A stretch of 48,656 bases of DNA from a virus. Lineage: Duplodnaviria; Heunggongvirae; Uroviricota; Caudoviricetes. Both the position numbers and the translations under genes were made by a program. A model generated the notes under the pieces. That model made no database searches, was not told the origin of the DNA, and was given only the letters and a program-made list of their open reading frames with translations. Below, piece by piece: positions 5,427 to 24,011 of the stretch. Each line of letters begins with the position of its first letter. Position 1 is the first letter of the stretch. The DNA is taken from IMG/VR virus record IMGVR_UViG_2534681762_000009, positions 1 through 48,656 of that record. One strand, given 5' to 3'.

Positions 5427-5582
5427 TCACTCACCTGAGTTTCTTTCCAGCCAGCGACGGGCACCATTTTCGGTTTTAAACGTTTTGCTTTTGGTATACG
5501 TCATTGCGGTGAACGTACCGTCCTGGTTGGGGAACACGCCACATACCAGAGATTCGCTGTTGCCAAGATTGATAGTATCCAT
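5427..5582 (-). CDS. YdfA-like small protein (51 aa), first gene of early-left operon
   Basis: 51-aa ORF from Met (MDTINLGNSESLVCGVFPNQDG…) with GAGG RBS; immediately downstream of left operator palindromes. Confidence 0.5.
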   Translation of the reverse strand: MDTINLGNSESLVCGVFPNQDGTFTAMTYTKSKTFKTENGARRWLERNSGE

Positions 5583-5767
5583 GCTGACCTCATTTCCCCT
5601 TAACGCCGGGGTAGCGGAACAAAAACCTGCTGCATAGTTATTAAAGTTGTACCCTGCCGTCATGTTCTTACGCCTCGGGCTGGCTACTTAACCCCTGACC
5701 ACTGCCTGGTAACTCGAAGTATTGCCCTGCATTCTGTGGAGCGGGGTGAGTTGGTATGAAAAGAAGG

Positions 5768-5805
5768 ATACCCATAGGTATTTAAAAAGTAAATACCCAT
5801 GGGTA
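5768..5805. promoter_or_regulatory. Left operator region (OL-like): two palindromes ATACCCATAGGTAT and TACCCATGGGTA
   Basis: Perfect 12-bp palindrome TACCCATGGGTA (5793-5804) and near-palindrome ATACCCATAGGTAT (5768-5781), same half-site family as sites between repressor and cro-like genes. Confidence 0.5.
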
Positions 5806-21007: not shown

Positions 21008-21045
21008 TTTTAATTTCACTGAAATTTAATACGTGACTTTCAGGA

Positions 21046-21075
21046 AAATGCCTCGCAGATGCGGGGCATTTTTGT
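21046..21075 (+). terminator. Rho-independent terminator after lysis cassette
   Basis: AAATGCCTCGC-agat-GCGGGGCATTT followed by TTGT. Confidence 0.55.
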
Positions 21076-21423
21076 ACAGGTATTTCACCGCGCACCGCAG
21101 CGCACTCAACCACGTCGAACCAAACCCTTTGGAATGAGCCTTTGAGTAGTCAGTTAGTGCTGGTGAGCCTTGACGGGCTGATCTCCTATGCAGCAAAGGT
21201 TCATCTCAAAGTAAGACGAACGCTATGACAAACCAAGATTCTATAGACCTATCTGATCTTCGTGGAATGGTCAGTTTTCCAGACAAAAGGTAATCACCAT
21301 AGTCGTATGGCTATGAATCTTGTTGCTGCAGATAAGCATTTTGTGATTGAAGTGGTCAAATCTCTCAAATGCAGTAAAATGCAGTGCGCTATAATTCAAT
21401 AACGGAGGGAGTAAGGAGAAGTC

Positions 21424-22044
21424 ATGAAAGATCAAGATGTTAGGTTCGCGGTGCATCATAAGCTTTTGAAAGAATCGCATTTAGATCCAGACTGCCTTGT
21501 GGTCGATGAATTTTCCATATCCCTTGGCGCCAGTAGAGCAGACATTGCTGTAATAAATGGTGTTATACACGGGTACGAGCTCAAAAGTGAATATGACTCT
21601 TTGGAGCGTTTGCCTCTTCAAATCAAGCATTATTCTTCTGTAATGGACAAGGTTACTCTTGTCGTAGCTGAGAAACACCTTGAGGGAGCATTAAAGTTAA
21701 TCCCAGGTTGGTGGGGCGTTAAAACGGTTTCTGTTGGGCCAAAAGGCGCCATTCTTATAAAGCACATGCGTGGAGAAAAGCTTAATCGAAACCATGACAC
21801 ATTGATGCTCGCTCAATTGCTTTGGAAAGATGAATGTATCGACGTACTTGAACGATGGGGCTATTCCAAAGGAATCAAAAGCAAGCCCCGATTTGAGTTA
21901 TGGAATATTATTGCGGAAAATATTCCAATAGCGAATCTCAGGCCTGAAGTCAGAACAGCCTTAAAGAAACGCGTAGGCTGGAAAGTTAAGGCTTGGCAGG
22001 CTGAGTCTGCGCCAACCAATAAAGCTGTCTCACGACTAACGTAA
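21424..22044 (+). CDS. Hypothetical protein with PD-(D/E)xK nuclease-like motif (AT-rich accessory gene)
   Basis: 206-aa ORF; very strong RBS (GGAGGGAGTAAGGAGAAGTC-ATG) and consensus TATAAT 28 nt upstream; motif RADIAVINGVIHGYELKS (D … E-x-K after a β-strand-like segment); AT-rich vs flanks. Confidence 0.6.
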   Translation: MKDQDVRFAVHHKLLKESHLDPDCLVVDEFSISLGASRADIAVINGVIHGYELKSEYDSLERLPLQIKHYSSVMDKVTLVVAEKHLEGALKLIPGWWGVKTVSVGPKGAILIKHMRGEKLNRNHDTLMLAQLLWKDECIDVLERWGYSKGIKSKPRFELWNIIAENIPIANLRPEVRTALKKRVGWKVKAWQAESAPTNKAVSRLT

Positions 22045-23053
22045 TATGGTGCGTATGTGCAACTTTACGCCATTCTTTAGAGCCGCCAGATTTGTTAGCG
22101 CCTAATGATCTTTGGTAAATGTAATCATCCCCCCAACTAAATTTGGAGCCAAAGACTTGATACTCTGGCGAACTAACAAGGGTAGTACATAAGTTTTTAG
22201 TTTGGCCCCATCCATTTCCTTTAACTGCGGTACCTTTTACAAAGATCCATGAGGTATCGTTCGAATATCTCACTGAGACATACTGAGACATGAAGCGTGG
22301 GTCTACGCTCGTAATGGTAGAGCTAGCGGTGGGATAATCACTAAAACTTGGCGTTCTTCCATTGCTAAAATTCTGTACTACGTACATCCAAAGATCGTAT
22401 TCATGGCGCGGAATATGATGAACTTGATGTTGCGGTATCCCTGCCTGTGATGCCGGGTATGCGGTTGAAGATAAAATCAAGTTTCTCCACGGAGCTTGGC
22501 CTGATAATGTGTTGACCATGCTTAATGCTTGTTGTTTTAAACTATCAGTTGCGTTTTGAATATCTCCAAAATCAATGATTACATCAATTAAACTAGGATG
22601 AATATTTAAGTGGTTAACCAGACTTGTGAATTGGTGCCATGTCTGGGGGGTGATAGACATAGCGAGCCCATTGATTAAGTTGCGTTGAACAGCATGTATA
22701 TAGTTTGTTGAATATGCGGGAGAAACAACAGGGATAATTTCCTTACCATTTACTCTAGCATCTTGGATACACATATCTAGAGGATGATGGCGGCTCGAAC
22801 CATGTTTATCTAAATATTTAACATCCAGCAAAACAGGACGATTGGCTTTCCAGGATGCCGCAAGGTTAATACCGAAGTCAGATAAGTAAGAACTCAAACT
22901 CTTCTTGTAGCATTCGTTTTCATAATCCCAGTCTATGTCTGGAATGGTAATGATCGGAGTAAAACCAGAGAGCGTAGTTTGATCTAAAAGCATCAGAGAT
23001 TCATATTCAGCAGGCTTCCATTTCAGCTGTGGATAATATTGATGTTGACTCAT
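21986..23053 (-). CDS. Hypothetical protein (355 aa), convergent partner of the nuclease-like gene
   Basis: AAGGAG RBS 5 nt upstream of ATG; 3' end overlaps the plus-strand partner by 59 nt; AT-rich; no family assignable from sequence alone. Confidence 0.6.
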   Translation of the reverse strand: MSQHQYYPQLKWKPAEYESLMLLDQTTLSGFTPIITIPDIDWDYENECYKKSLSSYLSDFGINLAASWKANRPVLLDVKYLDKHGSSRHHPLDMCIQDARVNGKEIIPVVSPAYSTNYIHAVQRNLINGLAMSITPQTWHQFTSLVNHLNIHPSLIDVIIDFGDIQNATDSLKQQALSMVNTLSGQAPWRNLILSSTAYPASQAGIPQHQVHHIPRHEYDLWMYVVQNFSNGRTPSFSDYPTASSTITSVDPRFMSQYVSVRYSNDTSWIFVKGTAVKGNGWGQTKNLCTTLVSSPEYQVFGSKFSWGDDYIYQRSLGANKSGGSKEWRKVAHTHHITLVVRQLYWLAQTQPAKP

Positions 23054-23276
23054 TAAAACTCCTTAAAATCTTTACTTATCCTAAGTATAGTGTTATGGCG
23101 TAACGCCAATTGTTTTTATACACTTGAAAACATTGGGAAAAGTTGAGCTATATCTAAATTTACAAAATTGGATGTTATAGAAATCGAGGTTTCAACTAGG
23201 CATGGAACTGCAAAATTTTTAATGCCTGCACGCGAAAGTCGTTGGCGGGTCCTTTCCGGTGATCCAGATCGTTACG

Positions 23277-23288
23277 GGGCGGCGACCT
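23277..23288. other. cos: cosN cohesive-end site (GGGCGGCGACCT) with cosB region downstream to Nu1
   Basis: Exact lambda cohesive end sequence GGGCGGCGACCT followed by CGCG…TTTTC…CTATTTATGA, as at the lambda left end, ~215 bp upstream of Nu1 start. Confidence 0.8.
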
Positions 23289-23504
23289 CGCGCGTTTTCA
23301 CTATTTATGAGATTTTTTGAGGGGGTGGTTGTTGTTTAATTGTTTGGTATATCTAATTGATAAGTAAGGTGAAAATAAAATAAATACAACAACCTTACGA
23401 TGTGTTTTGATGTCGCCAATGCGAAAAATGTCAATGATATCAAATGGTTTTGCAAAAACACATGGTTGTTGTTTCGCTTTTTATCGATGACTTATGGAGA
23501 GGAG

Positions 23505-24011
23505 ATGGCCTTTTTATTGAATAAAAGTGATATGGCCTCCTCCATCGGTATCTCTGTTCAGGCATTTGATAAATGGGGCGTTCCTCCTGTTGAACGTCGG
23601 GGGAGGGAAGTTTTATATGACGTTAAAACTGTACTGGAGATAGATCGCGAGCGGCGACAACACAATCAGAGAACACCTGATGACGGGGGAGAACTGGAGG
23701 AAAGGCTGCTTCGGGCCAGAGCTGAACTGACAGAAGAACAGGCTGTAGCTCAAAAACTTAAAAATCAGGTAACCGAAGGTAAGCTCATCGATTCAGACTT
23801 CTGCGTTTTCGCCCTCAGCAAACTGGCGATGGCATTGTCCAGTACGCTTGATTCCATTCCGTTATCCATGCAGCGACAGTTCCCGGATTTAACGCCACGT
23901 CATATTGACCATCTGAAAACCCTTATTGCAAAGGGCGCAAATCAGTGTGCGCGGGCAGGGGATAAATTACCGGATTTGCTGGATGAATATATCAGAGCAA
24001 CAACTGAATAA
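23505..24011 (+). CDS. nu1: Terminase small subunit (Nu1-like)
   Basis: Strong similarity by eye to lambda Nu1 (…FCVFALSKLAMALSSTLDSIPLSMQRQFPDLTPRHIDHLK…); GGAGAGGAG RBS; 3' end overlaps terminase large subunit start. Confidence 0.8.
   Translation: MAFLLNKSDMASSIGISVQAFDKWGVPPVERRGREVLYDVKTVLEIDRERRQHNQRTPDDGGELEERLLRARAELTEEQAVAQKLKNQVTEGKLIDSDFCVFALSKLAMALSSTLDSIPLSMQRQFPDLTPRHIDHLKTLIAKGANQCARAGDKLPDLLDEYIRATTE

Follow-up and report, generated by a model that had tools for sequence, protein, structure and literature searches.

Background

Two described systems are closest to the locus reported here, gop-beta-cII of the satellite P4 (Ghisotti 1990, as cited by Rousset et al. 2022) and PD-lambda-2. 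When it is cloned with its native promoter, gop-beta-cII protects against lambda and P1, and in P4 the Gop protein is toxic without beta (Rousset et al. 2022, PMC9122126). According to Silas et al. (bioRxiv 10.1101/2023.04.06.535777), cells die via gop-beta-cII when it is triggered by the phage accessory gene orf184. In PD-lambda-2 the HigB-like protein A neutralises the toxic protein B (Xre-HTH/M78-peptidase), and defence requires the beta-like protein C (Vassallo et al. 2022, PMC9519451). Here we analysed a cassette of two convergent genes, one beta-like and one cII-like, in the IMG/VR Caudoviricetes record IMGVR_UViG_2534681762_000009. The whole stretch of 48,656 nucleotides (nt), to which all coordinates refer, is hereafter called the window; it is a lambdoid prophage in prophage order, from the integrase to the tail fibre.

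We identified the cassette, with very high confidence, as the gop-less, lambdoid, cos-adjacent form of the beta/cII (sce7725/sce7726) family, a form that is already catalogued and automatically annotated. P4 gop-beta-cII and PD-lambda-2 have beta in common, and the widespread, conserved unit is beta with a putative PD-(D/E)xK nuclease, without the known toxins. The window prophage offers a minimal, clonable form of this unit (1.8 kb, with its own conserved upstream regions), which may be a poorly understood core of both defence systems.

The two proteins

The cII-like gene (21424-22044, plus strand, ATG start) encodes a protein of 206 amino acids (aa). The protein matched the NCBIfam model NF033832 (sce7726) with 184.1 bits over residues 1-183, the cut-off being 70, as well as PADLOC 'cll' (E 3.8e-31) and phrog_984. 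We found 314 homologues, and the precomputed Pfam domain PF26915 (Phage_P4_cII) was present on 120 of 120 homologues among the matches listed; P4 cII was 27% identical to the window protein (E 3e-19). By curated score, the 206-aa protein is a full member of the sce7726 / Phage_P4_cII family.

Structure prediction modelled with confidence a PD-(D/E)xK nuclease domain at about residues 1-120, with a restriction-endonuclease-like alpha/beta core, and placed after it a C-terminal domain that is helical and basic (about 126-185), residues 192-206 being a disordered tail. The protein contains the motif RADIAVINGVIHGYELKS (D40, E52-x-K54), and E29, D40, E52 and K54 are among the residues invariant in 42-43 homologues, P4 cII included, down to 24% identity. 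A preliminary description of this DNA had judged the D...E-x-K arrangement compatible with a restriction-endonuclease fold, and both the invariance of the motif and the predicted structure agree with it. The cII-like protein is, on these grounds, a putative nuclease with an intact E29...D40...E52-x-K54 motif. The nearest known PD-(D/E)xK nucleases are MmcB-like / SPO1766 (PDB 3dnx), the nuclease domain of Can2, NucS and the type II restriction enzymes; unlike these, to which it has no detectable sequence similarity, the cII-like protein carries the helical C-terminal domain and would have an obligate TIM-barrel partner. At sequence level, no relative with a solved structure was found for either this protein or beta.

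In Gordonia phage DumpsterDude, a cII-like open reading frame (ORF) with 43% identity to the window protein across 203 residues (locus L098, 5001-5615) is unannotated in the GenBank record, which has in its place a 71-aa gene 32 on the other strand.

The second gene (21986-23053, minus strand, ATG start) encodes a stand-alone TIM-barrel protein of 355 aa. It had been presented at first as a partner of no known family, which does not hold: it belongs, by its sequence matches, to the P4 Beta protein family (Pfam PF14350, Beta_protein), the match covering residues 6-342 of 355 with 190.3 bits against a gathering threshold of 27 (E 8e-56). The protein also matched phrog_9159, and BLASTP aligned it end to end with P4 beta, which is likewise of 355 aa, at 22% identity. 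Among the PADLOC models, two for PD-Lambda-2_C (E 4.1e-32 and 1.7e-25) fitted it better than the model named 'beta' (E 3.3e-10).

The predicted structure of beta is a generic TIM barrel. Residues E16, K51, D77, H90, D157, R190, R216, D239, R253 and R262 are invariant, as are R329, K330, H335 and H336 further on, and so many invariant charged residues suggest that beta is an enzyme or a ligand-binding protein. We rejected any specific enzyme identity drawn from the fold, whose matches were to generic TIM barrels only. At 50% clustering the family comprises about 3,769 representatives; the best 150 of these are nearly all stand-alone proteins of about 340-420 aa, and none of the 150 showed a domain fusion that might serve as a functional clue.

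Both ORFs are real genes, as indicated by the E-values of the profile hidden Markov models (HMMs) (2e-54 for the 206-aa ORF and 8e-56 for the 355-aa ORF) and by ratios of non-synonymous to synonymous substitution (dN/dS) of 0.04-0.08, obtained for both against orthologues from Edwardsiella, Klebsiella, Cronobacter, Pantoea and Pectobacterium. The cassette is thus under strong purifying selection. With respect to the catalogue entries sce7726 (NF033832)/sce7725, PF26915 and PF14350, the two window proteins are full members, and the entries themselves carry no assigned function. The preliminary description had also suggested, with little confidence, that a cassette of about 200 and 350 aa is catalogued; this can now be given a name, since NCBIfam holds sce7726 and beta (sce7725-type) and PGAP annotates both.

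Comparison with gop-beta-cII and PD-lambda-2

In P4, cos is followed by gop (133 aa) and beta (355 aa), then by cII (264 aa), which converges on beta, and by int. The window has in common with it the homologous beta and the homologous cII, the latter with the same E/D/ExK residues, and the convergent pair adjoins cos with its beta side facing cos, as cargo of a temperate element. The window differs from P4 in lacking gop and in its host element, which is a lambdoid prophage and not a P4-like satellite. Moreover, P4 cII extends about 60 aa further at its C-terminus than the window protein, and P4 beta and cII do not overlap, being separated by a gap of 27 nt, whereas the window genes overlap by 59 nt.

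We looked in the window for a third gene resembling gop or the A and B genes of PD-lambda-2, and found none. Between beta and cos there is no minus-strand ORF of at least 20 aa, and the small flanking ORFs matched no PADLOC model, while P4 Gop, used as a positive control, scored 4.8e-70. A phmmer search of 93 loci did not find any Gop homologue, and gop is absent from all 80 of the genome loci described below. gop-beta-cII is listed in DefenseFinder and PADLOC as gop_beta_cll.

As for PD-lambda-2, the window resembles it in that beta matches the PD-Lambda-2_C models and in that 33 of 47 PD-lambda-2-like loci have, as the window does, a cII-like gene convergent with C and overlapping it. It differs from PD-lambda-2 in having neither A nor B (none in 23054-23400); the recognition of B works elsewhere, PADLOC PD-Lambda-2_B reaching E 1.8e-150 in other loci. 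The published PD-lambda-2 was defined without a cII-like gene, and PD-lambda-2-like loci often carry such a gene as a fourth, unlisted partner (for example at L149 5151-6807 and L161 5224-6889), about 30% being without it. This fourth gene in most PD-lambda-2-like loci was not found in the papers searched.

Linkage of the pair

To describe how far the two genes travel together we used three sets of loci, from genome contigs (L014-L093), viral contigs (L099-L144) and metagenome contigs (L145-L224). The genome set, anchored on cII, consisted of 80 loci kept out of 381 confirmed, and it covered Proteobacteria, Firmicutes, Myxococcota, Acidobacteria, Melainabacteria, the candidate phyla radiation and other phyla. 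In this set beta was convergent with cII and directly downstream of it in 77 of 80 loci, and two of the three exceptions stop at a contig edge. In the viral set, anchored on beta, a convergent cII-like gene was present in 45 of 46 loci, the sole exception having a truncated beta. In the metagenome set, anchored on PD-lambda-2B, beta was directly downstream in 48 of the 56 loci with enough downstream sequence, and 33 of the 47 loci with beta and room beyond it (70%) had a convergent cII-like gene. Conversely, a PD-lambda-2B-like gene stood upstream of beta in 14 of 77 cII-anchored genome loci. The pairwise identities of beta and cII correlate across loci, with a Pearson coefficient of 0.82 overall and 0.52 among distant pairs.

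The partners of beta thus vary. It is accompanied by cII in nearly all cases, by Gop in P4 and by the A and B genes in PD-lambda-2, and the most frequent arrangement is the minimal beta/cII pair, which is the conserved unit. The pair is found in prophages, satellites and islands, such as a Cronobacter chromosomal islet and P4-like primase islands in Enterobacteriaceae. It adjoins a cI-like repressor in Acinetobacter prophages and hok (hok/mok) in phage Rac-SA53, and in Gordonia phages it is located between the lysis genes and the integrase, near BrnT.

A locus of Xenorhabdus koppenhoeferi (L020, about 5560-5800) has a cII-like gene followed, in the place of beta, by a plus-strand ORF with a protein-kinase-like motif (HRDLKPANIL); on this motif, the ORF may be an alternative partner of cII.

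Overlap of the 3′ ends

The preliminary description had reported two convergent ORFs, 21424-22044 on the plus strand and 21986-23053 on the minus strand, and both are present, their 3′ ends sharing an antiparallel segment of 59 nt (21986-22044) that is coding on both strands. This convergent overlap is a trait of the family and no peculiarity of the window locus. Precisely, an overlap is present in 73 of 75 genome loci (11-158 nt, median 53), in 44 of 45 viral loci and in 33 of 33 PD-lambda-2-like loci, and the length of the overlap is always 2 mod 3 (73/73 genome, 44/44 viral and 33/33 PD-lambda-2-like overlapping loci), hence the two reading frames stand everywhere in the same relative phase. 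When the loci were anchored on HMM positions, the spacing between the conserved C-termini was constant in most lineages, and the R-x-x-W-R end of cII was coded opposite the helix that follows the invariant HH of beta. The subfamily of the window has 39 additional nt (13 codons) between the C-terminal anchors, with the phase kept. P4 is an exception, and its 27-nt gap between beta and cII holds an annotated terminator.

The overlap is a deeply conserved antiparallel dual-coding segment found across phyla, and such a fixed-frame overlap was not found in the papers searched. No stable RNA fold or Rfam match was detected in the overlap and, likewise, no structured or known RNA in the flanks. We consider that the overlap is probably kept by descent and by dual coding; an antisense coupling of the two mRNAs is possible.

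Compared with its nearest relatives, the window cII-like protein is 16 residues longer, having lost a stop codon. The relatives' TAG is TGG in the window (21991-22044, compared with 5563-5573 of L014), so that the protein has 206 aa instead of 190 and the overlap 59 nt instead of 11; the 16-residue tail is disordered in the model.

Boundaries, slot and occurrence of the cassette

By blastn, the cassette is homologous to those of five other genera between about 21339 and about 23073, and conserved blocks continue to about 23165 in the alignment; the left boundary, in blastn comparisons with the Edwardsiella, Klebsiella, Cronobacter, Pantoea and Pectobacterium cassettes, falls at 21332-21367. 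The GC content across the pair (21200-23000) is 0.40-0.43, lower than that of the lysis genes (0.49-0.52) and of the terminase and head genes (0.50-0.57), in agreement with the AT-rich character that had been noticed at first. A moron is an accessory gene insert in a phage genome that is expressed independently. The cassette has both the atypical base composition of such inserts and their presence in some related phages and absence from others, and we regard it as a probable moron, self-contained and horizontally mobile, with two genes in about 1.8 kb (approximately 21339-23165) of the beta/cII family.

The position between the Rz/Rz1 terminator and cosN, given in the preliminary description, is correct. 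The intrinsic terminator that follows the Rz/Rz1 lysis genes (21044-21075, plus strand) has a 13-bp stem (-20.2 kcal/mol, z -5.8) and then a U run, and it is the left edge of a variable slot; the cosN 12-mer GGGCGGCGACCT, a match to the lambda cosN sequence, is at 23277-23288 on the plus strand. That this slot takes accessory genes had also been proposed, and in fact prophages with related lysis genes hold there a KilA-N gene with an insertion sequence (IS), trkG, or Rha and HNH genes instead. The segment 21076-21230 is common to such prophages, where it lies ahead of their cargo gene, so that the window cassette appears to have replaced an earlier insert.

The whole interval from the Rz terminator to the cassette (21076-21338) is 77-84% identical to other prophages and to phage IdasGreatGrand. 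In IdasGreatGrand the homologous sequence is inside an annotated anti-repressor gene, and in both the other prophages and IdasGreatGrand it precedes a KilA-N-type cargo gene.

Of 5426 complete E. coli genomes, 126 carry a 2.2-kb region with the cassette at an identity of 99% or higher, and in these PGAP names the two products 'sce7726 family protein' and 'beta family protein'. At DNA level, the cassette region is present in no sequenced phage of the phage collection. In one of the 126 genomes, that of E. coli CUVET17-972 (NZ_CP115370.1, 2716888-2720424), an IS2 is inserted within the region and splits the match in two.

Function of the cassette

We consider a prophage-borne anti-phage or abortive-infection module the most likely role of the cassette, and we hold this reading with moderate confidence. 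It is based on the homology to two tested systems, the intact motif, the tight linkage of the pair, its mobile-element contexts and the two known roles of beta. A defence module had already been regarded as plausible in the preliminary description, and the homology of both proteins to components of gop-beta-cII and PD-lambda-2 goes in the same direction. Our confidence in the individual roles of the two proteins is lower than that in the function as a whole.

As a defence module, the cassette would defend its lysogen from other phages, through either abortive infection or superinfection exclusion. The cII-like PD-(D/E)xK protein would be the nuclease effector, a role assigned by elimination because the known toxins of the relatives are absent here. 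The TIM barrel of beta would be its obligate partner, a guard or sensor restraining the effector until a phage-derived trigger arrives, since beta restrains Gop in P4 and PD-lambda-2C is needed for defence. The two proteins may form a physical complex. Each gene would be expressed from its own conserved upstream region and, as the genes converge, their mRNAs would have complementary 3′ ends, a possible means of coupling the expression of the two. Rule-based defence finders require a third gene and thus probably overlook loci of this kind. If active, the cassette would be a further case of a defence slot beside cos in lambdoid prophages, a counterpart of the P4 hotspot.

Several points weigh against this reading. 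In both tested relatives the known toxic component is another protein (Gop or PD-lambda-2B), which is absent here; no cII-like gene was detectable in about 30% of PD-lambda-2-like loci, hence beta can work without a cII-like protein. The predicted fold of beta, which resembles generic TIM barrels only, gives no functional lead, and the promoter scan found no canonical sigma-70 match on the strand of beta upstream of that gene. No paper was found on a two-gene form without gop, and the literature on sce7725, sce7726, PF14350 and the follow-up of gop-beta-cII yielded nothing mechanistic for beta or cII. Rules of the PADLOC type would probably not call the window locus a complete known system.

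Among the other explanations, an addiction module survives best, although we regard it as unlikely. The nuclease would be the toxin, and beta would act as its antitoxin, either enzymatically or by binding; the pair would mainly stabilise the mobile element that carries it, and any defence would be incidental. P4 beta does neutralise a toxin and has been described as part of a toxin-antitoxin-like pair; furthermore, the two genes are tightly linked, their proteins co-vary, and the pair is found on many kinds of mobile element and adjoins hok/mok and BrnT loci in two phages. However, type II toxin-antitoxin systems consist of small co-transcribed genes with a DNA-binding antitoxin, whereas here the genes (206 and 355 aa) are convergent and not co-transcribed, and the supposed antitoxin is a 355-aa TIM barrel in which no DNA-binding domain, helix-turn-helix included, was found. 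In addition, the tested relatives do confer phage resistance.

Less probable still is a function for the phage itself, either a modulation of lysogeny, as the old P4 name cII implies, or DNA processing in the lytic cycle. The cII-like gene runs in the direction of late transcription, to which beta is antisense. Most related prophages lack the cassette, which also occurs outside phages, on a Cronobacter chromosomal island, and at differing positions in different phages, so it is not part of a conserved phage pathway. We rejected it as core phage machinery on the same kind of distribution (126 of 5426 genomes, with other cargo in the slot), and as a decaying remnant on the dN/dS values.

Equally improbable is a restriction-modification-like system, in which beta would modify DNA or the nucleotide pool, as a TIM barrel of the kind seen in DpdA/TGT transglycosylases might, and the nuclease would cut unmarked DNA: the likeness of beta to DpdA/TGT was no better than that of many unrelated barrels, and the DNA methyltransferase partner of type II systems is lacking, beta being a TIM barrel and not a Rossmann-fold methyltransferase, with no methyltransferase match in Pfam or NCBIfam.

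Starting again from the defence reading, a broader and rather doubtful proposal can be put forward. The beta and cII-like pair might be an ancient, self-sufficient two-gene immune module present across phyla. It might also be the true functional core that gop-beta-cII and PD-lambda-2 share, to which particular lineages have added Gop or the HigB/Xre-peptidase genes. In a novel mechanism, a TIM-barrel enzyme or sensor would gate the nuclease, and the fixed-frame overlap would be kept because the convergent transcripts, complementary to each other, fix the guard-to-effector ratio.

Upstream regions and neighbouring features

The conserved 5′ region of the cII-like gene (21339-21423, plus strand) contains promoter-like elements, a direct repeat and a ribosome-binding-site (RBS) string. 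The string, GGAGGGAGTAAGGAG, is at 21404-21418, and its AAGGAG lies 5 nt ahead of the plus-strand ATG; on the minus strand, AAGGAG at 23064-23059 lies 5 nt ahead of the ATG of beta. The near-consensus RBS reported earlier for both genes is thus present, while the coordinates 21405-21419 first given for the string are to be corrected by one position. A TATAAT at 21390-21395 is preceded by the direct repeat AAATGCAGT, present twice (21367-21375 and 21377-21385, period 10), just as had been described. The promoter scan also found on the plus strand a promoter-like site made of TGGTCA (21353-21358), 16 nt and TAAAAT (21375-21380). The block TAAATGCAGTAAAATGCnGTGCGCTATAAT, which includes both the TATAAT and the TGGTCA-16-TAAAAT site, is nearly invariant in six sequences that are about 76% identical overall. 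This pattern suggests promoter activity upstream of the cII-like gene.

A tandem repeat as long as AAATGCAGT occurred in none of 200 shuffles of the 120-nt upstream stretch, and the repeat block is kept within the subfamily of the window. We rejected it as a regulatory feature of the whole family, because it is limited to that subfamily and any significant tandem repeat was found in only 5 of 77 upstream regions.

The 5′ region of beta (23054-23165, minus strand), which forms the right edge of the mobile cassette, contains the RBS and two blocks conserved across genera: a TATAAA (23120-23115) preceded by TTTTCAAGTG, and TTTAGATATAGCTCAA at 23158-23143. In the alignment of orthologous cassettes, TTTTCAnnnGTATAAA is conserved alongside TTTAGATATAGCTCAA. 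It is this conservation that points to a candidate promoter of beta.

In the same region, the preliminary description had read the palindrome TGGCGT-A-ACGCCA (TGGCGTAACGCCA, 23096-23108, assigned to no strand) as a regulatory site. The sequence is there, but the operator reading was rejected: the fold has little stability (-6.1 kcal/mol, z -0.84) and is equalled in 30 of 200 shuffles, and the palindrome is not kept in the orthologous cassettes of other genera. Together with ATTGTTTTTA (23096-23118, plus strand) it scores as a weak terminator-like hairpin just past the 5′ end of beta. If this hairpin works, the transcripts of the cII-like gene would cover all of beta in antisense and end before cos; it is weak and not conserved.

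On the 3′ side of cosN, the ORF 23400-24011 is the terminase small-subunit gene according to the PGAP annotation of a near-identical prophage. A mosaic relative of the window prophage is the E. coli E7476 prophage adjoining ompW.

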